64,000 bases of DNA from Escherichia coli O157:H7 (GCF_013167455.1 NZ_CP038328.1), one strand, 5' to 3'; positions 11,262 to 30,232 are shown, numbered from the stretch's first letter. The notes: a model not told the origin generated them from the letters alone. Numbers and translations: made by a program.

Positions 11262-12398
11262 GTGAGCGATTTCATCAACAATGTAAGTGTAGATTCAATT
11301 GGTCAACGCAACAGTTATGTGAAAACATGGGGTTGCGGAGGTTTGGAACTATGGAAGAACGGAACAGGCTTCAGTGAAATAGCGAATATCCTGGGTTCAA
11401 AACCCGGAACGATCTTCACTATGTTAAGGGATACTGGCGGCATAAAACCCCATGAGCGTAAGCGGGCTGTAGCTCACCTGACACTGTCTGAGCGCGAGGA
11501 GATACGAGCTGGTTTGTCAGCCAAAATGAGCATTCGTGCGATAGCTACTGCGCTGAATCGCAGTCCTTCGACGATCTCACGTGAAGTTCAGCGTAATCGG
11601 GGCAGACGCTATTACAAAGCTGTTGATGCTAATAACCGAGCCAACAGAATGGCGAAAAGGCCAAAACCGTGCTTACTGGATCAAAATTTACCATTGCGAA
11701 AGCTTGTTCTGGAAAAGCTGGAGATGAAATGGTCTCCAGAGCAAATATCAGGATGGTTAAGGCGAACAAAACCACGTCAAAAAACGCTGCGAATATCACC
11801 TGAGACAATTTATAAAACGCTGTACTTTCGTAGCCGTGAAGCGCTACACCACCTGAATATACAGCATCTGCGACGGTCGCATAGCCTTCGCCATGGCAGG
11901 CGTCATACCCGCAAAGGCGAAAGAGGTACGATTAACATAGTGAACGGAACACCAATTCACGAACGTTCCCGAAATATCGATAACAGACGCTCTCTAGGGC
12001 ATTGGGAGGGCGATTTAGTCTCAGGTACAAAAAACTCTCATATAGCCACACTTGTAGACCGAAAATCACGTTATACGATCATCCTCAGACTCAGGGGCAA
12101 AGATTCTGTCTCAGTAAATCAGGCTCTTACCGACAAATTCCTGAGTTTACCGTCAGAACTCAGAAAATCACTGACATGGGACAGAGGAATGGAACTGGCC
12201 AGACATCTAGAATTTACTGTCAGCACCGGCGTTAAAGTTTACTTCTGCGATCCTCAGAGTCCTTGGCAGCGGGGAACAAATGAGAACACAAATGGGCTAA
12301 TTCGGCAGTACTTTCCTAAAAAGACATGTCTTGCCCAATATACTCAACATGAACTAGATGAACCGCCCCGGGTTTCCTGGAGAGTGTTTTATCTGTGA
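11262..12398 (+). pseudogene. IS30 transposase, damaged: canonical N-terminus missing, C-terminus replaced by read-through into IS629
   Basis: ORF matches IS30 Tnp from ELWKNGTGFSEIANILG... to ...LAQYTQHELD; the native start (MRRTFTAEEKASVF) is absent and the last ~12 codons read into the IS629 inverted repeat. Confidence 0.7.
11288..12357 (+). mobile_element. IS30 remnant (left IR TGTAGATTCAATTGGTCAACGCAACAG present; 3' end cut off by the IS629-like insertion)
   Basis: IS30 terminal repeat and transposase recognised from memory; the right end with its IR is missing. Confidence 0.75.
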
Positions 12399-12400
12399 AC

Positions 12401-13291
12401 TCAGGCTGCCAGATCATCGTTTCCGATGGAAGCATAATAAGCTTTTTCTGCTTCTGCCGGAGGAGTATGGCCCAGCCTTCCCAGCAATCGTCGATTGTTA
12501 TACCAGTCCACCCACGTTAGTGTGGCCAGTTCCACTTCTGCACGGTTTTTCCAGCTCTTACGGTGTATTACCTCCGCTTTGTAAAGACCATTGATGCTCT
12601 CAGCCATCGCGTTGTCATACGAGTCGCCTGTACTCCCTGTTGATGCCAGTAATCCGGCTTCTTTTAGTCGCTCCGTATAGGCCAGTGACACATACTGAGA
12701 GCCTTTATCGCTGTGATGGATGGTGCCAGACGGACGACGGGCCCACAACGCCTGCTCCAGCGCATCCAGCACGAATGTCGTTTCCATAGACGATGAGACC
12801 CGCCACCCCACGATGTATCCGGCAAACACATCAATGATAAACGCCACATAGACGAAGCCCTGCCATGTGCTGACGTAAGTAAAATCAGCCACCCACAGCT
12901 GGTCAGGTCGTTCTGCCACGAACTGACGGTTTACGCGGTCGCCTGCGGCAACGGCTTTCCGGCTGATGGTCGTACGGACCTTTTTACCCCGGAGAACACC
13001 GGCAAGTCCCATAACCGCCATGAGACGTGCCACTGTACATCTGGCCACCCTGATTCCTTCCCGTAACAACTGACGCCAGACTTTACGCACACCGTACACC
13101 TGATGATTTTCATCGTATACGCGCTGTATCTCTCTCTTCAGCCAGTCGTCGTGCTGCGCACGGGCACTGCGTTTATCCGGATGATGTCGCTGTTGCTGAC
13201 AATGGTAATACGTTGACGGGGCAATATGCAGTTCGCTGCATACCGGTCCGACCCCGTACTGCTCACGCAGCTTATCCAGCAGTGGCATCAT
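12401..13291 (-). CDS. IS3-family transposase OrfB (DDE integrase domain)
   Basis: 296 aa, [16 protein letters not shown]...; rve-type catalytic domain recognised. Confidence 0.85.
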
Positions 13292-13614
13292 TTTTTCCAG
13301 AGGCGGTCGAACTCCGCCTTCGCAAAATAAGCGGAAGCCTGGCGAAGGATATCGTTACTGCGGCGCAGTTCACGATTTTCACGTTCCAGCTCTTTCAGAC
13401 GCTGACGTTCAGCGCTGGTGAGCCCACCATCACCGCCCCCGGTATCCCGCTCATGCTGGCGAACCCAGACACGCAGAGTCTCCGGCGTACAGCCAATCTT
13501 TGGGGCAATGGAACAAATTGCCGCCCACTGTGAGTCATATTCATCCTGACTTTCCAGAACCATACGAATCGCCCGCTGACGGACTTCGGGGGAAAAACGA
13601 GTATTTTTAGTCAT
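13288..13614 (-). CDS. IS3-family transposase OrfA (HTH / leucine zipper)
   Basis: 108 aa, [22 protein letters not shown]...; overlaps orfB as expected for a -1 frameshift fusion. Confidence 0.85.
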
Positions 13615-18864: not shown

Positions 18865-19470
18865 GTGTGGTCTGAAATAATAATTAAGGAGATTATCGTG
18901 CTATCTTACTTAATGGCAATTCACTTTGTTTTATTTGGAAACTCTACTAATTTAAAAAACTTCTGGAAACATGAAGTAATTCGGCGGAAACGTATGGATA
19001 TCTGGAGGCTTTTAAGAGAGAAAAAGCAGCGTAACCGGAATTTCCTTTTCTGGTGGCGGTTGGCTAACGAAATGTATATTAATGGTAATAAATTACATAA
19101 GAAAGCAGCCAAAAAGTTAAACAGTAAAATAATTAACAAGTTTGGTTGTGAAATAGGATTGGGCGCAAATATTGGAAAAGGGTTGACAATTCCCCATCAT
19201 GCTGGAATTGTTGTTCATTTTGCTGTTGATGCGGGTGAAAATCTGGTATTACGACAGAATACTACCATTGGACAGATAGATGGTGATATGCCTAGTTCAA
19301 GAGTAAAAATTGGTAGTAACGTTGATATCGGAGCTAATTGTTGCATCATTGGATTATCACGTAAAATTGGGGATAATGTAAAAATAGGTGCAATGTCTTT
19401 TATAAATAAAGATATACCATCAAACTGCACATATATAACTAAAAAGAGTGGTGTTGTATTGTATAAATAG
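18865..19470 (+). CDS. left-handed beta-helix (hexapeptide-repeat) O-acetyltransferase, CysE/WcaB/NeuO-like (prophage cargo)
   Basis: Hexapeptide repeats (IGANIGKG...IGSNVDIGANCCIIG...IGDNVKIGAMS); strongly AT-rich; the true start may be an internal Met. Confidence 0.65.
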   Translation: MWSEIIIKEIIVLSYLMAIHFVLFGNSTNLKNFWKHEVIRRKRMDIWRLLREKKQRNRNFLFWWRLANEMYINGNKLHKKAAKKLNSKIINKFGCEIGLGANIGKGLTIPHHAGIVVHFAVDAGENLVLRQNTTIGQIDGDMPSSRVKIGSNVDIGANCCIIGLSRKIGDNVKIGAMSFINKDIPSNCTYITKKSGVVLYK

Positions 19471-20046: not shown

Positions 20047-21104
20047 TGAACCGCCCCGGGAATCCTGGAGACTAAACTCCCTGAGAAAGAGGTAAACAGG
20101 ATGACTAAAAATACACGTTTTTCCCCCGAGGTCCGTCAACGGGCAGTCCGTATGGTTCTGGAAAGTCAGGGCGAATATGACTCACAATGGGCGGCAATTT
20201 GTTCCATTGCCCCAAAGATTGGCTGTACACCAGAGACTCTGCGTGTGTGGGTTCGTCAGCATGAGCGGGATACCGGGGGCGGTGATGGTGGACTCACCAC
20301 CGCTGAACGTCAGCGTCTGAAAGAGCTGGAACGTGAAAATCGTGAACTGCGCCGCAGTAACGATATCCTTCGCCAGGCTTCCGCTTATTTTGCGAAGGCG
20401 GAGTTCGACCGCCTCTGGAAAAAATAATGCCGCTGCTGGATAAGCTGCGTGAGCAGTACGGGGTCGGACCGGTATGCAGTGAACTGCATATTGCCCCGTC
20501 AACGGATTACCACTGTCAGCAACAGCGACATCATCCGGATAAACGCAGTGCCCGTGCGCAGCGCGATGACTGGCTGAAGAGAGAGATACAGCGCGTATAC
20601 GATGAAAATCATCAGGTGTACGGTGTGCGTAAAGTCTGGCGCCAGTTGTTACGCGAAGGTATCAGGGTGGCCAGATGTACAGTGGCGCGCCTCATGGCGG
20701 TTATGGGACTTGCCGGTGTTCTCCGGGGTAAAAAGGTCCGTACTACCGTCAGCCGGAAAGCCGTTTCCGCAGGCGACCGCGTAAACCGTCAGTTCGTGGC
20801 AGAACGTCCTGACCAGCTGTGGGTGGCTGATTTTACTTACGTCAGCACATGGCAGGGCTTCGTCTATGTGGCGTTCATCATTGATGTGTTTTCCGGATGT
20901 ATCGTGGGGTGGCGAGTCTCATCGTCTATGGAAACGACATTCGTGCTGGATGCACTGGAGCAGGCGTTGTGGGCCCGTCGGCCGTCCGGCACAGTCCATC
21001 ACAGTGATAAAGGTTCTCAGTATGTATCACTGGCCTATACGGAGCGACTAAAAGAAGCAAAACTGCTGGCATCAACAGGGAGTACAGGTGACTCGTATGA
21101 CAAT
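20047..21104 (+). mobile_element. IS3-family IS629-like element, copy 2, 3'-truncated (~1058 of ~1310 bp), inverted relative to copy 1
   Basis: Left IR TGAACCGCCCCGGGAATCCTGGAG at 20047; similarity to copy 1 stops after ...gactcgtatgacaa (~21104). Confidence 0.85.
20101..20427 (+). CDS. IS3-family transposase OrfA
   Basis: 108 aa, nearly identical to copy 1 OrfA (a few substitutions). Confidence 0.85.
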
Positions 21105-21116
21105 GTATTTTATTAG
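20427..21116 (+). pseudogene. IS3-family transposase OrfB, C-terminally truncated
   Basis: 229 codons versus 296 in copy 1; diverges after ...[11 protein letters not shown]. Confidence 0.8.
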
Positions 21117-21135
21117 TTCACATACAATTATCAGA

Positions 21136-21450
21136 TTATTCTGGGAATAAGGTCTGAATATTCTTTTTTATTTTATAAAAATTGCATTCAACTCCGCTAG
21201 GCTGATTAGCCTGGTATGTTTCCTTGATGCTAACGGTATTGAAGGGGAGGTTGTCCTCTGGCCATTCGGCCATCCAGTAGGCAAATGCTGGGTTGCGCTT
21301 TATGAGTGCTAGCCCAGCCAGAAAGGCCGCGCGTTGCGCGCGGCTGCGTTCGGAGGCTGGCAGGCTATCGAGGTAATTGCACGCCTCCTGTTCACTCTTG
21401 ACGGCGGCGGGCTTCAGATAGAAACTTATCCGTCTGGTTGGTGTCGTCAT
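21136..21450 (-). CDS. ParR/StbB-like centromere-binding adaptor of a type II partition system
   Basis: 104 aa; RRISFYLKP...LDSLPASERSRAQRAAFLAGLALIKRNP resembles plasmid R1 ParR (recalled from memory). Confidence 0.65.
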   Translation of the reverse strand: MTTPTRRISFYLKPAAVKSEQEACNYLDSLPASERSRAQRAAFLAGLALIKRNPAFAYWMAEWPEDNLPFNTVSIKETYQANQPSGVECNFYKIKKNIQTLFPE

Positions 21451-21454
21451 TGGT

Positions 21455-22414
21455 TTACTCCTTGTTCATTGCGTACAACCCATTAACCAGAGCAAACTGT
21501 GGCACCCCGTCCGCGATGAAAGTCGCATTAACTCCGCAGGCTTCGCGGATAGCGGTTGCCACAATCTCCGCCCCGCCACCGACAACCATCACCCGCCCGT
21601 AACCCGAAAAAACCGCCAGCGCGCGGATCACGCGTTGTTTCAGTGTTTCTTCCTTTTCACGAATAACCGCCATCAGGCTGGCGTAATGCGCGTCATTGTG
21701 GATGTGCTGGCGCAGCCAGGCTTCATCATGGCGATGTTCGATAATGGTATTGGCGATGTGGTGACTGGTGCGCATACCGTTAGTGGCCATCACCGACAGT
21801 ACGGCATCGGCCATCAGAGAAACGCCTACGTGTGGATCGCAAAACACCTGGCTGATACCTGCCAGTTGCCCCTGAACCTTTGCCACATCCAGCGTGGTTC
21901 CGCCCAAATCCACAATCAGCAGGGATTCAAACGGACTCATGTCAGCCAGTGCCTTAAAGCCAGCAGGAATGGATTCAGGCATAACCCGTACGTTACGGAT
22001 AGTGAATGCTTCGCCGTTCTGGTACTCCACCGGGCGCATGACGTTCGCTTTTTTGCGGTTGATGTTGGCCATGTCCGGCTGTGCGTTTGTATCGAAATAC
22101 TCGCTCAGTGGCAGGGTGACAACCACATCCACTTCCTGTGGTGTGATGCCTGATTTGACCAGCGCGTGATGAATGGCAATTACATTCACATCGCTGTACT
22201 GGTATTGCGTGTCGGTCGTCTGGACAAAGCGATCGCTGACCGGATCAAAACCATAGCGCACGCCATCAAGCATGTAGTTCGCGGGCTGCGTGCCACCGAA
22301 TGGCGCAGACCATTCCGACTTGAAGCTGTTCGGGCTGATGGCGTTGCGGCGTTCGCCGTTCTCAGTCCATGCCAGCTTGATGTTGGTGGAGCCGTCGTCG
22401 ATACAAATTTTCAT
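21455..22414 (-). CDS. ParM/StbA-like actin-family partition ATPase
   Basis: 319 aa; actin-fold motifs IDDGSTNIK (phosphate 1), LIVDLGGTTLD (phosphate 2), VMVVGGGA (adenosine). Confidence 0.75.
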   Translation of the reverse strand: MKICIDDGSTNIKLAWTENGERRNAISPNSFKSEWSAPFGGTQPANYMLDGVRYGFDPVSDRFVQTTDTQYQYSDVNVIAIHHALVKSGITPQEVDVVVTLPLSEYFDTNAQPDMANINRKKANVMRPVEYQNGEAFTIRNVRVMPESIPAGFKALADMSPFESLLIVDLGGTTLDVAKVQGQLAGISQVFCDPHVGVSLMADAVLSVMATNGMRTSHHIANTIIEHRHDEAWLRQHIHNDAHYASLMAVIREKEETLKQRVIRALAVFSGYGRVMVVGGGAEIVATAIREACGVNATFIADGVPQFALVNGLYAMNKE

Positions 22415-22450: not shown

Positions 22451-22560
22451 AGGATTTTTAAATCCCGCTTTTGCCTGTTTTGTGCGCGCTTCATATATCG
22501 CGGCGCGTTTTTTGCTCATTTACGGGATTTGTGAGTCCCGTTTCTGTCTGTTTTTTGTTT
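22451..22560. repeat. two copies of a ~35 bp repeat, each containing a GGATTT..AAATCC-type palindrome; candidate parC-like centromere or operator
   Basis: aggatttttaaatcccgcttttgcctgttttg (22451-22485) and cgggatttgtgagtcccgtttctgtctgttttttg (22525-22560), directly upstream of the parM-like gene. Confidence 0.4.
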
Positions 22561-25313
22561 CCACTGGTCAGGCCACCCCGCAGCAGGTCTGCTTTGCGGC
22601 TGGCGCGTTCAGTGGTTTCACTGATTCTCTGTGCGTGCTCTGCGTCGCGGATGGCGCGCAGCATGTCAGAAAGCACGGTAACGGGTGTTTTCATGGTGTT
22701 CTGGTCCTGCTGAAGTGTGGATGCCAGGCGTGCGGCGGCTTCAGGGTCTGATGCCCCCAGCTGTGCCAGATAGCTGGCGACCGGGTTATGGCGGATCTCC
22801 GTGCTGCTTACGCCATGATTACGGCTCAGGCGCTGCCAGAGCTGCGTGATTCGGCTGTCCGGGCGGGTATCCGGTTTGCGTACAATTTCAAATCCCTGCG
22901 GTGCAATGATGCTGCCGTCAACGTACAGACTGCCGCCCCGTAACAGGTGCTGCATCTGTTGTTCACCGATATGCAGGCCGAGAGATTCAGCAGACTCCCG
23001 CCATTCTTTAGCGAGTAATTCGTGGTTATCAGGCAAAGGCCGCTGCTGTTTGCGGCTCTGTGTCCAGCTCTGCATTTCATCACTGCTGTTTTTTGCCTGT
23101 TTGTCACGAAGCGAACGCATCAGCGCCCGGCGTTCGTGCCGTTTCAGTGAGCGCATCCATTCGTTCACGTCAACGCCGTCAGGAAGCTGCGGCCACGGTG
23201 CTGGCCGTTCTTCCGGCTGTTCTGTCCCGTTGTTGTCCGTTTCCTGTACACGGGGACAGTTATTGCCACGAGTCCAAGGGGCGGCAGGGCCGCCCTGAAG
23301 GTCAAAACCATTTTCGCGGGCGCTGTCTTCTACTCCCGGTTTACGTCTTACCAGCTTCCAGTTATCCGGGTGCGTGCACACACGGGAGGATTCCCCGATG
23401 AGTGGTGACCAGATCCCGTAAATCTGTACGCTCTGTTCGCCGTAATCGTTCAGCTCATCTGCGAGGTCGTAGGCGGTGCGAATCAGGTAGTCCTTGCGTG
23501 GAACAAGTACGCCTCCCTGTTTCTCAATGTAGGTGGTAAAACATCCGGCATCAGCGGCAGCAAGAACCGCATCCATTGCGTCATCCTTCAGCCGTTGCGG
23601 GCCTTCCGGGTTGCGTGCCATCTGGCTGGCAAGGCGACGCAGTTCACGCCACACCTGACGGGAGGGGATGCCAAAGAACTGGAACTGGCGGACCCGGTGA
23701 AGGCGCGCCCAGCCAATGGCGCGTTCCACGCTCTCGGTCATTGATTTTCCGGTTTCGTGGTCAACGCGTGGTTTGCCTGTTTTCGGGTCGATGCCATCCA
23801 CGGCGCGGCTGTCCAGGTTTTTTCCGATGTAGGTGGCGATGTAGCTGGTTGGCGTGCCTTTTGAGCCGTCGACATACTCCGCCTTAAAGCGCGGAGTAAT
23901 ATCATCGCCCAGCTCGTGACGATCTTCCTGAATGGCAATATCGCGGGTGTGGGACACAATGGTGTCGATTTCTTCCGGATGAGCAAAGACCATCATATGC
24001 CAGTGCACGGTGCCGTCATGGTGAGGCTCCACCGTGCGGATGCCATACCAGCGCAGGCCGTCGCGGTTCAGTTTCTTGCGGACCGCCGCAAAAAACGTGT
24101 TAACCAGGTAATCGCTGGAGTCGCGCATGGTGGCCCCGTTCCATTTGGGATTCGGATGACCGTTCTCTGTTGTAGCGTGGTATTTTGACGGGCAGGTGAC
24201 AGTCAGAAACACCGCTTTGTCGCCACGGGCTTCGGCCAGAAGTTCCAGCCCCTTCATGGTGGCCATCATTTCTGCCTTACGGTGAACCGGGTTACTTACT
24301 CCCGCGTAATACACTGTCTCGAGATCAATCGTGAACCCGTCTTCGTTTTCCAGCATGAAACTTTTCAGGAAATCGCGTGTTTTCTCGCGCTGTGCGCGAA
24401 ACTCGCTTAACGCGTCCTGGCTCAGATAGGGCGATGTTTTTCTGGAAACCAGACAGGCGGCGCGGAGTTGTTCTTCTCTCCACTCGCAACGTAACAGCCA
24501 CAGTTTGCGTTTCCACCATTCCGCACAGGTCAGGCGAAGGATTGCGCCCGGCAGCAGCTCCGTGTCCGGTTCGTTCCTCCGGTCTTTGTCTGTTGTCAGT
24601 GCGTCATAATGTGGAGGCATGGCGTGCAGGTGTAACGCCATGCGGGCCAGCATCTGATACGCCTTCAGCGTTACATCCATGGTCAGTTCGCCATCGGTCG
24701 CGCCAAAGCCATCGCAGAGTTTTTCGAAGGTGCTGCTGAACATCGCCGCCGTCATGGTGGCCAGCGTCTGTATCTGGTGTTTGTTGAGCTGCGGCAGGTA
24801 AAGCAAATCGTCCAGGCGTTCGCGTCCGGCAAGGGAGCGATAACCCTGTGTCAGCCAGCGGTGATCGGTGCGCTCCAGACGTTCGAATATTTTGCGCAGG
24901 TTTCCGCGCGCGTAGCGTTCAGCCTGCCAGCTCTTTTTGCCTTTCTGACGATCGGCTTCCTGTTTTTTGCGCAGGAAGGAGAGGTGGCGAATAAGCGGAT
25001 CGCGCAGATAGGACGGCAGCAGGCGCAGCGAGGCCATGGCTTCATCCACCGCACCGCGTGCCTGTTTTCTGGCGTCTCCTGCCAGTGTGATGGTTTTGTC
25101 CTGTTTTTCCTGTGCGTCCAGGCTTTTATTAATCAGGTTGCCCAGCGGCGTTGCGGAGAACGCCGCATCAGCCATTTCCTGGCGGCGCTCGTTCTCTACC
25201 CGGTAGGCATCCAGCCAGGAGGAAAGCGCGGATTCAGGAGCGGGGATCCCCGTTCCTTCACGCCCCACTGCGTGGCGCGGTTGTTGCCAGTCCCTGATGT
25301 ACTCTGCCGTCAT
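22491..25313 (-). CDS. rolling-circle replication initiator endonuclease, P2 GpA-like
   Basis: 940 aa; HxH-type motif (GTVHWHMMVFAHP) and YIATYIGKN tyrosine region typical of the GpA family. Confidence 0.8.
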   Translation of the reverse strand: MTAEYIRDWQQPRHAVGREGTGIPAPESALSSWLDAYRVENERRQEMADAAFSATPLGNLINKSLDAQEKQDKTITLAGDARKQARGAVDEAMASLRLLPSYLRDPLIRHLSFLRKKQEADRQKGKKSWQAERYARGNLRKIFERLERTDHRWLTQGYRSLAGRERLDDLLYLPQLNKHQIQTLATMTAAMFSSTFEKLCDGFGATDGELTMDVTLKAYQMLARMALHLHAMPPHYDALTTDKDRRNEPDTELLPGAILRLTCAEWWKRKLWLLRCEWREEQLRAACLVSRKTSPYLSQDALSEFRAQREKTRDFLKSFMLENEDGFTIDLETVYYAGVSNPVHRKAEMMATMKGLELLAEARGDKAVFLTVTCPSKYHATTENGHPNPKWNGATMRDSSDYLVNTFFAAVRKKLNRDGLRWYGIRTVEPHHDGTVHWHMMVFAHPEEIDTIVSHTRDIAIQEDRHELGDDITPRFKAEYVDGSKGTPTSYIATYIGKNLDSRAVDGIDPKTGKPRVDHETGKSMTESVERAIGWARLHRVRQFQFFGIPSRQVWRELRRLASQMARNPEGPQRLKDDAMDAVLAAADAGCFTTYIEKQGGVLVPRKDYLIRTAYDLADELNDYGEQSVQIYGIWSPLIGESSRVCTHPDNWKLVRRKPGVEDSARENGFDLQGGPAAPWTRGNNCPRVQETDNNGTEQPEERPAPWPQLPDGVDVNEWMRSLKRHERRALMRSLRDKQAKNSSDEMQSWTQSRKQQRPLPDNHELLAKEWRESAESLGLHIGEQQMQHLLRGGSLYVDGSIIAPQGFEIVRKPDTRPDSRITQLWQRLSRNHGVSSTEIRHNPVASYLAQLGASDPEAAARLASTLQQDQNTMKTPVTVLSDMLRAIRDAEHAQRISETTERASRKADLLRGGLTSGNKKQTETGLTNPVNEQKTRRDI

Positions 25314-25319
25314 AGTGAT

Positions 25320-25685
25320 TTACTTCGTCATGCCATTCAGGGTGTCGCGGCAGGCTGTAGCCAGCCGCTGAATTTCCAGCACGGTGTCTTCTGTGTCGGC
25401 ATGGCGATGTGTGATGCGGATGCTGTCGGCAATCACATCGACGATTGCAGAGGATGGGCGCTGGTAAATGCCAATAACGGACGGGGTGCCACCTTCAATG
25501 CGGTAAAGCCTGTAATTTCCCTCGTGGCTGTCAATCATGTAGCGACCATCAATAACAATCTTTCCGTCAGCGAGCTGCGGTACAGGCAGGGATTTCAGGT
25601 ACATGTCATAACGATCACGCACGCGAGCGGCAAGATCACGTTCTGTGTTGAGCAGGTATTCAAGAAAGTCGTTGGCGAGAATCAT
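25320..25685 (-). CDS. hypothetical prophage early protein
   Basis: 121-aa ORF ending 6 nt before the gpA start; same strand. Confidence 0.5.
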   Translation of the reverse strand: MILANDFLEYLLNTERDLAARVRDRYDMYLKSLPVPQLADGKIVIDGRYMIDSHEGNYRLYRIEGGTPSVIGIYQRPSSAIVDVIADSIRITHRHADTEDTVLEIQRLATACRDTLNGMTK

Positions 25686-25757: not shown

Positions 25758-25988
25758 TTAATGGAGTTTGTTTTGCTGCTGGATGAGCTGTTGAAACTCG
25801 TGCAGATCATCCGCCAGATAGCTGAAAACAGAGGCGGAATAAATGTTTGATAGTGCGTGGCTGCGCTCATGCAGCATATTGATGTGCATGATTTGCGCGA
25901 CGCGTGATGCGCGGGAAAGTCTGCGGTTGATTTCAGTCTGGATGTGACGACGCTCCGCGATAGCGCGGTGCTGTTTGCGGTCTGCCAT
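25758..25988 (-). CDS. hypothetical prophage early protein
   Basis: 76-aa ORF in the early operon. Confidence 0.4.
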   Translation of the reverse strand: MADRKQHRAIAERRHIQTEINRRLSRASRVAQIMHINMLHERSHALSNIYSASVFSYLADDLHEFQQLIQQQNKLH

Positions 25989-26310
25989 GGTGTGGCCTCT
26001 TTGCTCGGTGATAGAAATAACTCACCATCCAGAGTTGAGAATCTCGGGGTGGCGAGACGTACAGGGTTCTCAACACCGGAGAGCAAAGAATCCGGCCCGA
26101 CCGAAGTCGGCCCCGTACGCCCCGCCATAATTCTGACGCGAAAAAGACGTGGCAATACAGTACGCACAAAAAAACCGCTAGCGCGGTTATGCGCTTTGCT
26201 CTGTATCGGGTTGAGAATCCCGGCACCCGTTTTATGAGGTGCAGCGGAAATGTAACCTGACCGATTGCGGCATGGCAAGCGGTTTTTTTGTGTGTGCATG
26301 TTCTGGTTTC

Positions 26311-26610
26311 TTACTGGTTCAGAAAAAAATCAAAAACGTTATCGATGCGTTGCAGCAGCTCTTGCTGCATTGCTTCCGGCGTTTCCGGTTCGCCAGGTGC
26401 CCCCAGCGTTGCGCAGAAATCAGCGATTTCATGATGGAGCGTGAGGCGAATGGCAGGAGCCGTGGTTCTGGCGTGCTCCAGCTGATCCAGCAGTGCCAGC
26501 ACAGCAGACGGCGAGAGCATTGCGCGAAATGCCAGTAATTTTTGAGGCGTTGCCATTCGTTGCAGGGCAAATGCCAGTTCGCGTAGCTTCTGGTGGTTGA
26601 TGGTGCTCAT
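26311..26610 (-). CDS. hypothetical prophage early protein
   Basis: 99 aa; start overlaps the upstream stop (translational coupling). Confidence 0.5.
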   Translation of the reverse strand: MSTINHQKLRELAFALQRMATPQKLLAFRAMLSPSAVLALLDQLEHARTTAPAIRLTLHHEIADFCATLGAPGEPETPEAMQQELLQRIDNVFDFFLNQ

Positions 26611-26873
26611 GCTCTGGCTTCCTTCAGTAGCTGGTTAAACATGTGAGTAAGTGGATTGCTACACCCGAACGGCATCGGGTTTACGTGGTAAGAAGCCTGG
26701 CCTCCTGTTTTGCGAGCGCGACCACCTGTGCTGCGGTTTGTTCTGATGACTAAGCCGCCGCGCCAAAGTCGGCGTAACTCAGCATTAATGGCTGTGGTTG
26801 GGGTATTCAGTGCTGCGGCGATCTCTCCGCCGCTACACCCCGGATGAGTAGCGATGTAGTCCAGAATGGTCAT
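26607..26873 (-). CDS. hypothetical small protein, possible winged-helix DNA-binding
   Basis: 88 aa; coupled to its neighbours by 4-nt overlaps. Confidence 0.45.
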   Translation of the reverse strand: MTILDYIATHPGCSGGEIAAALNTPTTAINAELRRLWRGGLVIRTNRSTGGRARKTGGQASYHVNPMPFGCSNPLTHMFNQLLKEARA

Positions 26874-27073
26874 CTGCGTGGCTCCTGTACCTGTCGGATA
26901 AGATTTACTCGCGCCACGTTGGTGGCGCAGAAGTAAGTGCCGTCAGTGAGGTAGATGTGGTGTGCATCCTTTTCCGAACGATGTTTGTCGATAGTGGTAA
27001 TCAGGCGTTCGTCGACCTCGTATTCGCGCCCTCTGGAGGTAAAGCGAACGACGGGAAAATGCTTAATTGCCAT
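26870..27073 (-). CDS. hypothetical prophage early protein
   Basis: 67-aa ORF, translationally coupled. Confidence 0.45.
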   Translation of the reverse strand: MAIKHFPVVRFTSRGREYEVDERLITTIDKHRSEKDAHHIYLTDGTYFCATNVARVNLIRQVQEPRR

Positions 27074-27096
27074 TGCGCCCCCTTTGTCCAGTAACC

Positions 27097-27513
27097 CTAT
27101 GCGTTAAATACGGCACGTTGCGCGTCATCAATGAATACAGCTTGAGAGCGTTCTATCAGGCGGAGATTTGTCAGAAGCTCTGACTCTTTTGTGTGGTAAG
27201 GCGTTATCAGGTATTTGCCGTGCAGTTCGGCAATAATGGTGTATTGCAGCATCATTGCTGAACCAAGAATATAAATGCAGCGTCCAATGCTGGACGGATT
27301 CATGGCTGCAACTGTTGACTGTGTTTTAAGAGTGTCGATTTCTTTGCTCTGTTCCTCAATAACTTTGGCTGCTTCAGGGGTGGCTATTGCGATGGTCAGT
27401 GCGTAAAGCGCTGCCATATGTTGATTATCTTTCTGGGCTGCCCTGGACAGCTTGTCTTGCTCTGCTGACACTATTTTTAATGTATTGATAATATTTTTTT
27501 CTTTTGCGTTCAT
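27097..27513 (-). CDS. hypothetical prophage early protein
   Basis: 138-aa ORF with a consistent coding strand. Confidence 0.5.
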   Translation of the reverse strand: MNAKEKNIINTLKIVSAEQDKLSRAAQKDNQHMAALYALTIAIATPEAAKVIEEQSKEIDTLKTQSTVAAMNPSSIGRCIYILGSAMMLQYTIIAELHGKYLITPYHTKESELLTNLRLIERSQAVFIDDAQRAVFNA

Positions 27514-27605
27514 TTTATATCTCCGTTATTTACGTGTGCGAATACCTCCGCGAATGCGGATAGTTTTCAGGTTTTCGGGTTTAATCTGGTGTTCTGTTTA
27601 AGCTG

Positions 27606-27719
27606 TTATTTGTCAGTGAAAAAGCGTTCAATCTTTTTTACTGAATGAATAATTCGCATAATCCCAATGGCGCAGGCCACCGAAATAATCAGAACAAGCC
27701 ATGAGATAAATATACTCAT
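27606..27719 (-). CDS. 37-aa single-pass membrane peptide (MSIFISWLVLIISVACAIGIMRIIHSVKKIERFFTDK)
   Basis: Translated by hand; not in the ORF track (below its size cutoff). Its ATG overlaps the upstream stop as ATGA at 27716-27719. Confidence 0.45.
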   Translation of the reverse strand: MSIFISWLVLIISVACAIGIMRIIHSVKKIERFFTDK

Positions 27720-27958
27720 GCGATATTCCCCAGCTTATATGGTTCAATGTGTTCCCCGCATTCTGCGGCACAGATCAGCTCGGAAAGTTCGTTAAGTGCA
27801 TCCAGATCATCAGCGTAAAAAGCAACGTCATACAAACTCCGGATTGCCCTGGTCAATGAGTCACGGGCTGCACGTTCAGCATGAGCGCCTGATGCACTTA
27901 AGCGAAAATAAAATCGTTCAGGTGCTTTGTTAATGAGAGTTTTATATTCTTTGCCCAT
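27716..27958 (-). CDS. hypothetical 80-aa protein coupled to the downstream membrane peptide
   Basis: ORF in the early operon; acidic C-terminus. Confidence 0.45.
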   Translation of the reverse strand: MGKEYKTLINKAPERFYFRLSASGAHAERAARDSLTRAIRSLYDVAFYADDLDALNELSELICAAECGEHIEPYKLGNIA

Positions 27959-27969
27959 CGCAACGCCCT

Positions 27970-28308
27970 TTAATCTGCTTTCTGAATTTCAGCTTCTGAA
28001 TCCATACAAATAATTTCGATATAGGGTTCATCGCCATTAACCTGACGAGCCTTTTCAGCTTCGCTAATGATTTCTCGTACGGTCTGGTACGGAAGCTCCA
28101 CAGTCAGGCGCGTACCGTTCAGATAAACGTAAGTAGCTGCGTTTTTTTCGGATGGAACAATTCCGTCAATGGCTGATGCGCGTAATAACAGTTCACCGCG
28201 AAAATCAATAAAACGGATAAATACACCTTGTGCATGCTCTTTGGTCATAAAGCACCTGTTATAAATCAGCCTGTTTAATAAAACTTTGCCCGCGAAGCAG
28301 ACGATCAA
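27970..28308 (-). CDS. hypothetical prophage early protein (likely start at the internal ATG at 28248)
   Basis: 112-aa ORF; the upstream 20 codons overlap the preceding gene, so a start at MTKEHAQG is more plausible. Confidence 0.4.
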   Translation of the reverse strand: MIVCFAGKVLLNRLIYNRCFMTKEHAQGVFIRFIDFRGELLLRASAIDGIVPSEKNAATYVYLNGTRLTVELPYQTVREIISEAEKARQVNGDEPYIEIICMDSEAEIQKAD

Positions 28309-28609
28309 CCGTGCGAAGTGCTTCGTATAATGTGAAATCCTGCCCGAAGTGATTGTCGCCGCAGTTCAATGCAAAAATGCGGTTCCCGGTAAACGGATTG
28401 CGTGGGCATTTGTGGACCACGATTCCAGCTTTCTCAATCAGCCAGGCATGTTCGCCGATTTGTTTTACAGCGTGGCCATCCGGTGTTGCATGCGTCTCGT
28501 TCAGGTTATAGCGACTGTTACTACGTGATGCACTGGTAGCGACGTGGTGTACATGGCGTTCTACGCCATTACGAAATTTGGAGTATGGATTATTAGCGTT
28601 TTTTTTCAT
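28259..28609 (-). CDS. hypothetical prophage early protein
   Basis: 116-aa ORF. Confidence 0.45.
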   Translation of the reverse strand: MKKNANNPYSKFRNGVERHVHHVATSASRSNSRYNLNETHATPDGHAVKQIGEHAWLIEKAGIVVHKCPRNPFTGNRIFALNCGDNHFGQDFTLYEALRTVDRLLRGQSFIKQADL

Positions 28610-28630: not shown

Positions 28631-28834
28631 TTAGCTGTTAGCCAAAGCGTCTTTTAACATCGCCACAAGGTTTACTTCAGGCTTTTCCATTTTGGCGCGT
28701 TTGGGGCGGATAATAATTCGACCGTCAGCCAACATCTTTTTGCATGTATTAAGAGGGATACCTGTTATCTCTGCATATTTCTGCAGGGATACATAGGGGG
28801 CATTCACATTGATATTGATGGTTATACCTGACAT
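28631..28834 (-). CDS. Cox-like small DNA-binding regulator / excisionase-type protein
   Basis: 67 aa; YAEITGIPLNTCKKMLADGRIII resembles the P2 Cox HTH region; position divergent from the repressor. Confidence 0.55.
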   Translation of the reverse strand: MSGITININVNAPYVSLQKYAEITGIPLNTCKKMLADGRIIIRPKRAKMEKPEVNLVAMLKDALANS

Positions 28835-28850: not shown

Positions 28851-29057
28851 TCAGGAAGATTTGTTTTGTTCTTTCTGGGTTAGCTCTAGGCCGCGAAGGG
28901 AGATCATGCGCGCCATGTTAGAGGATGAGCGTTGTTCTTTAGCTGCCATTTCATCAATGACGGCTCGCTCCTCGAGGGACAGCCGAAGTGCCAGTCTTGG
29001 ACCTGTGGCGGTGTTACGCGGAATGCGTGATCTGGTATCGTGAAGAACTTGTTTCAT
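28851..29057 (-). CDS. ribbon-helix-helix (Arc/CopG-like) small regulator, first gene of the leftward early operon
   Basis: 68 aa; LSLEERAVIDEMAAKEQRSSSNMARMI is RHH-like; divergent from the repressor gene. Confidence 0.5.
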   Translation of the reverse strand: MKQVLHDTRSRIPRNTATGPRLALRLSLEERAVIDEMAAKEQRSSSNMARMISLRGLELTQKEQNKSS

Positions 29058-29132
29058 AGTGGTATATTGTGATCATCTAATAGCTCGTGAAATCATTTTG
29101 GTATCAAAAAAGATACCTGTCAAGGTTTTTGT
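29058..29132. promoter_or_regulatory. immunity-switch intergenic region with operator-like palindrome GGTATCaaaaaaGATACC (29100-29117)
   Basis: Perfect 6-bp inverted repeat with 6-bp spacer between the divergent repressor and early operon; a GGTAT half-site recurs at ~29060. Confidence 0.5.
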
Positions 29133-29537
29133 ATGAAAAATGATATTGGTCGGCGGTTGCGTGAGGAAAGGGAAAGATTGGGACTTAGTCAAGTTGCCAT
29201 GAGCGACATTGGTGGAGTCAAAAAGCTAACTCAGCTTAGATATGAGAAAGGAGATAGCTTTCCTGATGCTGCGTATTTGGCAGCGCTGTCTCGTTTTGGC
29301 CTTGATGTTCAGTATGTTGTGTTGGGAATTCACTCACCTGAAACTTATAACGATGATGAGCAGGAATTGATTACTCGCTTTCGAGCAGCTTCGTTAGATG
29401 TGAAAAACGCGGTGATTGGGGCTTTAAAAGGTGCGATCAGTGAAAAGGAAACTCAGCCATCAGGACGTGAGTTAAATATTTCTGGTGGTAATAACCGTAT
29501 CGCTGGTCGTGACTATAACGAAACTAAGGGTAGGTGA
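29133..29537 (+). CDS. prophage repressor, HTH XRE family (C/CI-like)
   Basis: 134 aa; N-terminal HTH (LREERERLGLSQVAMSDIGGVKKLTQLRYEKG); divergent from the Cox-like gene; upstream of int. Confidence 0.75.
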   Translation: MKNDIGRRLREERERLGLSQVAMSDIGGVKKLTQLRYEKGDSFPDAAYLAALSRFGLDVQYVVLGIHSPETYNDDEQELITRFRAASLDVKNAVIGALKGAISEKETQPSGRELNISGGNNRIAGRDYNETKGR

Positions 29538-29552: not shown

Positions 29553-30203
29553 ATGGCCGTCAACTCAAACGGTTCAAACAATCGCGTTGCTGGGCGTGAT
29601 TTTCACGAAAAGAATATTCAGATAGAGCGATATGATGGTTCTCATACCGTCAATATCGCAATCCCTTCGAATAATGATGATGACGATCGCCCTTTGCTTA
29701 AGGCTCAGCGTAAGGAGCTAAATAGCTTGGTTGCTGCTATTGCAGAAGCTAGCAATACTGAAGCGTTTATTATTTGGCAAAAAGTACATGCGGAGATTGG
29801 TGTAGCTGGTATTGATGATATGACAGTAAATCAATATAAAACAGCGGAGAGTTTTCTGCATGCAATGCTTGAGCGATGTAAAGATCATGATGCCTGTAAG
29901 GCTCTTGTAAGTTTATTACTACGTAACAGTGAAGACTGTGGACTTCGACAAAAACTTCTGCGGTATTGCCATATCAATTTCGGTACAGGACGTTTAAACG
30001 ATCTTACTCGTTCTCAGTTACAGTCTGCATTGTCGTGGTTAGAGCAACAATCGGCATCAAGCCACATAGAGAGTTCGACCTTACCAGAAGTCCGACTTCG
30101 TGCTTCAGAATTAATCCGACTTTATCCAAAAGAAATAATATTCTTTATCTGCGTAGGGGTTTTGGTAGGCGGTGTCATTTCTAGGGCGTTTTTTAATTTG
30201 TAA
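29553..30203 (+). CDS. hypothetical tail-anchored membrane protein (cargo between repressor and integrase)
   Basis: 216 aa; one C-terminal TM helix (IIFFICVGVLVGGVISRAFF); N-terminus shares the motif NNR[IV]AGRD[YF][NH]E with the repressor C-terminus; AT-rich. Confidence 0.55.
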   Translation: MAVNSNGSNNRVAGRDFHEKNIQIERYDGSHTVNIAIPSNNDDDDRPLLKAQRKELNSLVAAIAEASNTEAFIIWQKVHAEIGVAGIDDMTVNQYKTAESFLHAMLERCKDHDACKALVSLLLRNSEDCGLRQKLLRYCHINFGTGRLNDLTRSQLQSALSWLEQQSASSHIESSTLPEVRLRASELIRLYPKEIIFFICVGVLVGGVISRAFFNL

Positions 30204-30232
30204 TCTTACTTGAGCTAAATTGAGGTAATGAT

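Follow-up and report, generated by a model that had tools for sequence, protein, structure and literature searches.

Small early genes of the P88-like prophage Sp13 in Escherichia coli O157:H7: a conserved core, variable positions and a neighboring P4-type RNA cassette

The window analyzed here is a stretch of 64,000 nucleotides (nt) from Escherichia coli O157:H7 (GCF_013167455.1 NZ_CP038328.1), and its positions 26311–28609 carry a block of small genes in the Sakai prophage Sp13 (CP-933T in EDL933). Sp13 is a defective but still inducible P88-like (Xuanwuvirus, Peduoviridae) member of the P2 family. An earlier note, made from the DNA alone, described the block as seven open reading frames (ORFs) of 67–138 amino acids (aa). 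All seven lie on the minus strand where they had been placed and have the sizes given; however, the block holds eight ORFs, since a short one, o37, had been overlooked. The seven longer ORFs correspond to ECs2623–ECs2629 of the Sakai annotation. Read along the minus strand, the block comprises the following features.

28259–28609, minus strand: o116 (ECs2623), a DUF4761 protein (PF15958, E=3e-62; phrog_2492).
27970–28248, minus strand: o92 (ECs2624), a member of phrog_3800 (E=7e-59).
27716–27958, minus strand: o80 (ECs2625), a DUF4754 protein (PF15946, E=1e-50, model positions 1–80 of 80).
27606–27719, minus strand: o37, a 37-aa peptide (RefSeq WP_000021655.1).
27547–27560, minus strand: a conserved stem-loop, TCCGC-ATTC-GCGGA, in the spacer between o37 and o138, at the left edge of variable slot 1.
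27097–27513, minus strand: o138 (ECs2626), a variable cassette gene (phrog_9338).
26870–27073, minus strand: o67 (ECs2627), a basic protein of 67 aa (phrog_3459, E=1e-45).
26607–26873, minus strand: o88 (ECs2628), with a PF12802 MarR_2 match (E=1.5e-5, residues 2–53; phrog_1687).
26311–26610, minus strand: o99 (ECs2629), a member of phrog_4144 whose N-terminal part matches phrog_250 and phrog_368.

The genes are tightly packed, and 94% of the interval is coding on the minus strand. The junctions, in order, are a 10-nt gap, an 11-nt gap, a 4-nt ATGA overlap in which the start codon of o37 overlaps the stop codon of o80, a 92-nt gap between o37 and o138, a 23-nt gap between o138 and o67, and 4-nt overlaps at o67/o88 and o88/o99. 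The earlier description of overlapping or nearly overlapping stop and start codons needs correction in that only three junctions are true overlaps, the other four being gaps of 10, 11, 92, and 23 nt. Strict translational coupling is limited to three junctions because only these overlap. A G-rich stretch resembling a Shine–Dalgarno (SD) sequence lies 5–10 nt upstream of seven of the eight ORFs, that of o116 being weak.

Each of the seven longer ORFs has its own PHROG family (E 1e-31 to 1e-79). The ratio of nonsynonymous to synonymous differences (pN/pS) against five sequenced phages was 0.00–0.35 for six of them; for o138, all alignments were gapped and hence gave no ratio. Across 40 unique sequences from relatives, codon position 3 was 2.7–6.7 times as diverse as positions 1 and 2 in o116, o92, o80, and o37. 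Judged by these measures, the block ORFs are genuine genes under purifying selection. ECs2623–ECs2629 have already been catalogued, as hypothetical proteins since 2001 and as DUF and PHROG families, and their presence is in itself an ordinary finding.

To compare the block across relatives, 80 IMG/VR viral loci were retrieved with the single protein o92 as bait, and all their genes were mapped. Five entire genes (o116, o92, o80, o37, and o67) and the C-terminal module of o99 are fixed in virtually all 80 loci. Two positions within the block are swappable: slot 1, which holds the divergent o138 family, and o88. The other variable items are the N-terminal half of o99, a second slot beyond o99, and, further downstream, an RNA cassette and the gene next to the replicase.

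The first core protein, o116, matches PF15958 over the full model (1–105 of 105) and consists of a basic, variable N-terminal tail of about 45 aa followed by a conserved α/β domain, with an isoelectric point of 9.7. Its most variable stretch is the N-terminal 60–90 nt in the 40 unique sequences. It was found in 79 of the 80 loci, and its pN/pS is 0.24–0.35. A literature search on the ECs locus tags returned only one expression datum for the block, which is that ECs2623 rose 2.4-fold under stress in one transcriptome. The second, o92, starts at an ATG preceded by an AGGTG SD and is 92 aa long, as RefSeq reads it. A 112-aa version that begins at TTG and overlaps o116 was considered and set aside; RefSeq does not use it, and the ATG with its SD is preferred. 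The o92 protein is acidic. Its AlphaFold2 (AF2) model is a five-strand β-meander capped by a C-terminal helix, with a mean predicted local distance difference test (pLDDT) score of 78.5, and its Foldseek matches in the PDB were weak (best E=0.03), including PH-like, Sac7d, and LytTR folds. The protein occurs in 14 of 50,697 phage records, all P88-like, and a distant P2-like prophage has a 40%-identical relative in the corresponding place behind cox.

The third core protein, o80, is helical as judged by sequence pattern alone. Its pN/pS is 0.03–0.05 against four of the five phages and 0.21 against the fifth. The o67 gene shows values of 0–0.29 overall and 0–0.06 against three of the five phages. 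It was found in 78 of 80 loci, the two exceptions being contigs that end early. A 246-aa profile, phrog_19053, spans o67 and o88 together. Paralogy of o92 and o67, which share a similar pattern of β-strands and "NG" motifs that may resemble FlbD, was also considered and rejected as unsupported (hhalign E=0.23, probability 0.3%).

The overlooked peptide, o37, has a single transmembrane segment (Kyte–Doolittle maximum of 2.68 over residues 3–21) and a basic C-terminal tail. PHROG and NCBIfam searches gave zero family matches for it, and it was found in 79 of 80 loci, with a third-position diversity three times that of positions 1 and 2. Additional constraint at the nucleotide level, as from an overlapping RNA, was hinted at by the five phages but disappeared in the 40 unique sequences. 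As a small hydrophobic peptide, o37 resembles the toxins of type I toxin–antitoxin systems in this one respect. Near it on the plus strand lie a promoter-like site (27465–27494) and the hairpin at 27547–27560; this promoter-like site is inside o138, a gene absent from many relatives.

Slot 1 extends from the conserved hairpin after o37 to the SD of o67. It may be empty (90 nt), contain an o138-family allele, or contain unrelated cargo of 105–122 aa. The hairpin is kept in six of six phages, two of which show a compensatory C-G to T-A change; it has no T-run on the coding strand and is terminator-like on the opposite strand. Alleles of o138 are 36–100% identical and are mosaic in the N-terminal hairpin. 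The gene is absent from P88, P884B11, and 520873 and was found in 4 of 50,697 phage records, all P88-like. The AF2 model of o138 (pLDDT 82.8) is a long antiparallel helical hairpin (residues 3–70) followed by a five-strand SH3-like barrel (residues 79–127), for which Foldseek returned only generic barrels (KOW, Tudor, PWWP, and myosin-SH3; E of at least 0.03).

The second swappable gene, o88, is missing or replaced in about one-third of the related loci, being present, divergent, or absent. It has the winged helix-turn-helix (wHTH) core of the MarR family. It does not have the full MarR fold of about 140–150 aa, as it is 88 aa long, begins inside the wHTH, and has no flanking dimerization helices; its NCBIfam scores are far under the cut-off (20.8 bits vs 125). 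The predicted protein is better called a bare wHTH protein than a full MarR regulator. The last gene, o99, is a chimera of two modules, an Ead/Ea22-type N-module (residues 1–46) and a small acidic C-module (residues 60–99). Among the sequences aligned with o99, 15 of 24 match PF13935, most of them having the N-module, and o99 itself is below the threshold (E=0.047). When compared with the three-part architecture of the Ead/Ea22 family (PF13935), o99 has the N-module only and no coiled coil or C-terminal domain (CTD). In other loci, the C-module also follows other N-termini, including an Arg-rich one. Slot 2, between o99 and the next feature, isrK, is empty in the window. In relatives (L014, L017, L021, L035, L038, and others), it is occupied either by a 276-aa lipoprotein with a 67-aa membrane protein or by a 186-aa protein, and the lipoprotein is named an SPFH-domain protein in one P88 record, KP063541.

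Homology searches placed the block outside known families. The earlier note could assign none of its ORFs to a P2 early function (B, orf78–83), and this was borne out, as the comparison that it proposed with the P2 and 186 early regions found zero meaningful matches. Homology of the block ORFs to P2 Orf78, B, and Orf80–83 or to 186 CII, Fil, Dhr, and gp31–34 was not found with phmmer --max or BLASTP against a set of 19 P2 and 186 early proteins. The best match in this set, between o80 and B, covers 36 aa at E=0.016 and, with a database of 19 sequences, is not meaningful. Confident homology of each ORF to replication accessory proteins was likewise not found. Structure prediction, suggested in the earlier note for every ORF, was run for o138 and o92 and returned generic folds only. 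PADLOC defense models gave nothing below E=0.009, the weak matches being wHTH noise; NCBIfam gave no family assignment for the block proteins; and PDB sequences, searched with the concatenated proteins and with an o92 profile, gave nothing below E=0.06. With the eight proteins joined into one query, HMMER returned 140 matches in total, many of them fragments, from 1.84 billion representative proteins. In the literature, no papers mentioning DUF4761 or DUF4754 were found, and searches on P88/Xuanwuvirus and the ECs locus tags gave no functional data. A catalytic signature or a homologue of known function was found in none of the block proteins. They are lineage-restricted ORFan families.

Upstream of the block lie the genes expected at the start of an early operon of the P2 family.

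29133–29537, plus strand: the C-type repressor gene, encoding a helix-turn-helix (HTH) protein and divergent from the block.
29095–29123, minus strand: a Pe-like sigma-70 promoter, TTGACA-17-CAAAAT, which is a consensus match only (10/12) and faces the C-type repressor gene.
28851–29057, minus strand: an Arc-like ribbon-helix-helix (RHH) gene of 68 aa, the first gene of the operon (phrog_3431 "Arc-like repressor", E=4e-27).
28631–28834, minus strand: a Cox/Apl-like HTH excisionase-repressor gene of 67 aa (ECs2622; phrog_575, E=1e-27).

Phage 520873 encodes an annotated Arc-like repressor with 98.5% identity to the Arc-like protein, and the Cox/Apl-like protein shows a weak match to 186 Apl (E=7e-5 in the 19-protein database). 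The two genes support the earlier view of the block as small early-operon ORFs behind a Cox/RHH side. At the position of the Arc-like gene, the O157 RefSeq and Sakai annotations instead show a 45-aa ORF (ECs2621) on the opposite, plus strand at 28906–29043, which is probably a wrong-strand gene call. Together, the divergence from a C repressor near int, the Cox/Apl-type start, and the gpA end make this an early operon of the P2-family type.

Downstream, the earlier note had the block running toward gpA. The run is not uninterrupted, since an isrK terminator, a C4/CI RNA, an ε-like gene, and a further ORF, o121, intervene between o99 and gpA.

26168–26242, minus strand: an isrK-type small RNA, the equivalent of P4 seqA (Rfam RF01394, 63 bits, gathering threshold 50).
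26045–26132, minus strand: a C4/CI-type antisense RNA (Rfam RF01695, 78.5 bits, gathering threshold 45).
25758–25988, minus strand: o76 (ECs2631), a P4 ε-like "derepression" protein (PF25738).
25320–25685, minus strand: o121 (ECs2632), just upstream of gpA (phrog_3237).
22491–25313, minus strand: the gene of a gpA-type replication endonuclease of 940 aa (ECs2633; RefSeq "replication endonuclease").

IsrK and C4 have been equated with the seqA and CI RNA of P4 (Barquist 2013). Both RNAs score above the Rfam gathering thresholds, and P4 itself, with the same order of features, scores 60.8 for isrK and 74.9 for C4. The isrK gene begins 68 nt past o99, with a promoter-like site at 26278–26249 and a strong intrinsic terminator at 26188–26173. 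The o76 protein and P4 ε share 32% identity across 50 aa (E=6e-9), and the presence of a P4 ε-like gene in Sp13 had already been noted (Asadulghani 2009). The hairpin loop of C4 has two complementary targets, one within isrK and one that overlaps the o76 SD. In 25 unique cassettes, drawn from 55 related loci, perfect cognate complementarity of at least 9 nt and at least 7 nt was present in all. The C4 loop occurs in 11 versions and a second segment in 6 versions, and both cognate targets always bear the matching change. The resulting 14 specificity combinations co-vary three ways, whereas non-cognate pairs average 4.2 and 3.3 nt. Because the C4 loop, the isrK site, and the o76 SD co-vary in this manner, there is strong evidence that the cassette acts as a working and diversifying P4-type RNA immunity system. 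It is predicted to gate the ε-like and replication genes separately from the block. No description of the isrK and C4 RNAs or of their covariation in P88-like phages was found in the literature. Within the 80 loci, the isrK–C4–ε cassette may be present or absent.

Inside o138, 11 nt (27341–27351; AGAGCAAAGAA) agree without mismatch with the complement of the C4 loop, compared with 9 nt for each of the two bona fide targets. This is probably due to chance, because the o138 alleles of loci that have the same C4 type are divergent, at about 50% identity, and encode other residues around this position. A LexA box was found nowhere in the prophage, and control of the ε-like gene by the SOS response in the manner of 186 tum was rejected on this ground.

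The o121 protein shows a weak match to P2 Orf81 (E=0.004 in the 19-protein database). Two types of gpA exist among the related loci (L012–L091), with about 100% and 55–58% identity to that of Sp13 across the first 200 aa. Most loci with the 55–58% type have an unrelated 129-aa protein in place of o121, which suggests that o121 or its 129-aa alternative may be a replicase-specific partner.

The identity of the host element is well defined. Gene sizes and order fit ECs2617–ECs2635, with exact agreement with the Sakai table across ECs2622–ECs2633, and the region is syntenic with P88-like genomes and 84–94% identical in DNA to 14 P88-like phage records. Nucleotide similarity, synteny, and gene order therefore all place it in Xuanwuvirus and identify it as Sp13. 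Many E. coli O157:H7 chromosomes match the 3.9-kb region at 100% identity; among 5426 complete E. coli genomes, 286 match it at 99% or more and 1454 contain part of it. RefSeq shows the glyW–cysT–leuZ tRNA cluster on one side of Sp13 and yecA/tyrP on the other, while the neighbors of the block are int (30586–31587), the C-type repressor, gpA, ParM/partition genes, a few tail genes, and insertion sequence (IS) elements. Sp13 has no head or packaging genes, yet it excises spontaneously, is amplified approximately 30-fold after mitomycin C, and is packaged into the virions of other prophages (Asadulghani 2009). Because it excises, amplifies, and is packaged, its early region is functional in the cell.

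Apart from its head and packaging genes, Sp13 has lost most tail genes. Transposase genes of the IS30 and IS3 families (11262–13614 and 20101–21116) break and shorten the late region, and the tape-measure gene is frameshifted in RefSeq; Sp13 is therefore defective. Immediately downstream of gpA, at the position of the P2 old/tin hotspot, are ParM-like and partition-protein genes (21136–22414, minus strand). A plasmid-partition system occupies this hotspot in about one-quarter of P2-like phages (Rousset et al. 2022), and the presence of these genes beside gpA suggests that Sp13-type elements may persist as plasmids. Two lysogeny-side cargo genes lie between C and int (29553–30580, plus strand). 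The first encodes a 216-aa protein with a hydrophobic C-terminal tail and a sub-threshold similarity to the flagellar regulator Flk over residues 37–166 (E=8e-16); the second encodes a DUF2511 protein with a hydrophobic N-terminus. Lysogenic conversion or exclusion is a possible function of both. Amid the remaining tail genes, a gene resembling serine/sugar O-acetyltransferases of the hexapeptide-repeat family (18865–19470, plus strand) looks like a moron, possibly with a role in the acetylation of surface polysaccharides.

Taken as a whole, the block is probably, though with only modest confidence, the promoter-proximal half of the early lytic (Pe) operon, giving lineage-specific accessory functions and containing a variable slot with conflict or accessory cargo. 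Its predicted make-up is a set of small binding proteins: a basic tail with a domain (o116), a β-meander (o92), a helical protein (o80), a membrane peptide (o37), a winged helix (o88), a hairpin with an SH3-like barrel (o138), and an Ead/Ea22-type module (o99). Once the C repressor is lifted, expression from Pe would begin with the block and would not depend on the replication genes, which themselves would need a second release at the RNA level. The fixed core would act stoichiometrically by binding DNA, RNA, membrane, or host proteins, thereby aiding lytic development. Its proteins would be functional counterparts, and not homologues, of P2 orf78/B/orf80–83 and 186 cII/fil/dhr, and slot 1 would bear conflict or accessory cargo.

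Several points weigh against this proposal. The use of o92 as bait makes its constancy in the 80 loci circular, and linkage to it partly explains why its close neighbors are constant. The promoter and terminator calls, based on sequence alone, are consensus matches at background frequency; the scan found 6 against 4.5 expected and 10 against 4.9 expected. The AF2 alignments were shallow (10–12 sequences), and all fold matches had E of at least 0.03. The binder roles are predictions read from protein architecture. Roles within the phage and roles directed at the host would both fit strict conservation, so that the functional half of the proposal is one that we infer.

The block might instead be a counter-defense or host-takeover battery, in which each protein inhibits host immunity or a host process and o67–o88 resembles an acr–aca pair. 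This is possible but unlikely. The proteins are small, early, and non-enzymatic, the host-directed genes fil and dhr of 186 lie at the equivalent position, and a small ORF translationally coupled to a winged-helix gene does resemble the acr–aca layout. However, o67–o88 has no promoter of its own, no internal promoter rises above background, and o88 is often absent where o67 is retained. PADLOC gave no defense-model match, and no literature on these families was found. Most of the block is also unvarying throughout the genus, with strong purifying selection seen for o80 and o67, unlike anti-defense genes, which are typically patchy; conservation on this scale argues for phage-intrinsic roles. 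The content of the o138 slot, by contrast, varies from empty through alleles 36–100% identical to unrelated cargo of 105–122 aa, and only this slot appears to behave like a conflict locus. An anti-defense role is thus plausible mainly for o138, because the rest of the block is too uniformly conserved. A more specific idea, which we regard as decidedly unlikely, is that the o37/o67 junction is an unrecognized hotspot of cassette exchange in the repressed early lytic operon of P88-like phages, occupied mainly by the o138 family, and that o138 is an early factor for counter-defense or competition between phages, its hairpin tracking a variable target.

It is quite improbable that one or more core proteins are replication accessory factors, for example a functional replacement of P2 gpB, the DnaB loader. 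Such a role would account for the finding of no B homologue among the early-region ORFs examined while gpA-type replication is active, and the core is fixed in the lineage and lies in the same operon as gpA. Nevertheless, the left core is 80–100% identical with either gpA type, and it is o121 and its 129-aa alternative that co-vary with the replicase; because the left core does not, a dedicated partnership is disfavored. A terminator and an RNA immunity cassette also separate the block from the replication genes, and no link in fold or sequence to helicase loaders was seen. Finally, the loss of head, packaging, and most tail genes and the IS insertions could mean that the ORFs are decaying remnants of a defective prophage, functionless in O157. 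That is extremely improbable. Hundreds of O157 genomes carry every one of the ORFs undamaged and without sequence differences, plaque-forming relatives have undamaged versions of these genes, purifying selection acts on them, and Sp13 still excises and replicates, so that intactness, selection, and excision largely refute decay.

The assignment of the block to the promoter-proximal half of the early operon is of limited consequence in itself, as it adds further lineage-specific early ORFans in a P2-family phage that were annotated already in O157 genomes. Its practical value is that about one-quarter of complete E. coli genomes hold part of the region and that Sp13 is among the few O157 prophages that still excise and replicate after mitomycin C. 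Viable relatives, among them P88 and phiSM, make the genes genetically tractable. The map of core and slots separates candidates for the phage life cycle (o116, o92, o80, o37, o67, and the C-module of o99) from candidates for conflict (o138 and the slot-2 cargo). Of more interest is the adjacent P4-type RNA immunity cassette in a helper-type phage; this cassette and the variable slot are the parts that deserve experiment.

Among known systems, phage λ, which bears Ea22, likewise has a block of small, early, conserved, and non-essential ORFs that modulate the decision between lysis and lysogeny. λ Ea22 consists of an N-terminal domain, a coiled coil, and a dimeric CTD (Goddard 2024), whereas o99 joins the N-module to an unrelated 40-aa tail, and the other ORFs of the block are unrelated. 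The old/tin hotspot of P2-like phages shows high gene turnover between conserved anchors (Rousset et al. 2022), as do the slots at o37/o67 and o99/isrK. The hotspot lies downstream of gpA and carries prophage-expressed defense systems, and in Sp13 it is occupied by ParM and a partition gene; the Sp13-type slots, in contrast, lie inside a repressed lytic operon and hold proteins of 100–140 aa without defense-type domains.

The closest layouts are those of P2 and 186. The early (Pe) operon of P2, cox–orf78–B–[terminator]–orf80–81–82–83–A, has the same position and direction as that of Sp13, a Cox-type start, and a gpA end, and its small ORFs, most of them without an assigned function, likewise follow one another closely, the first group of genes being closed by an internal terminator. 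The Sp13 block differs in having no homology to it, no B, and no TraR/DksA-like orf82, and an additional Arc-like RHH gene precedes cox. The internal terminator of Sp13 belongs to isrK and is followed by the C4 RNA and the ε-like gene, features that the annotation of the P2 early region does not contain. The pR operon of 186, apl–cII–fil–dhr–tR1–…–A, shares with Sp13 an Apl-like first gene (a weak match) and has the small host-directed genes fil and dhr before an internal terminator that is read through in lytic growth. The block shows no homology to cII, fil, or dhr, and Sp13 has no LexA-controlled Tum, in place of which the ε-like protein may be involved in induction (Asadulghani 2009). The bipartite early operon is a family trait, because P2 and 186 also have an internal terminator after the first early group.

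The left operon of P4, vis–isrK(seqA)–CI RNA–ε–orf151–orf106–α, shows the same order of isrK, C4/CI RNA, ε-type gene, small ORF or ORFs, and replication gene as Sp13, and an HTH excisionase-type gene lies upstream in both. The spacing between vis and isrK is about 70 nt in P4, compared with about 2.4 kb in Sp13, where eight small ORFs lie between the Cox-like gene and isrK. The replicase of Sp13 is of the gpA type and not an α primase, and Sp13 is a P2-type helper phage and not a satellite. In Sp13, a P4-type module has taken over the boundary of the bipartite operon.

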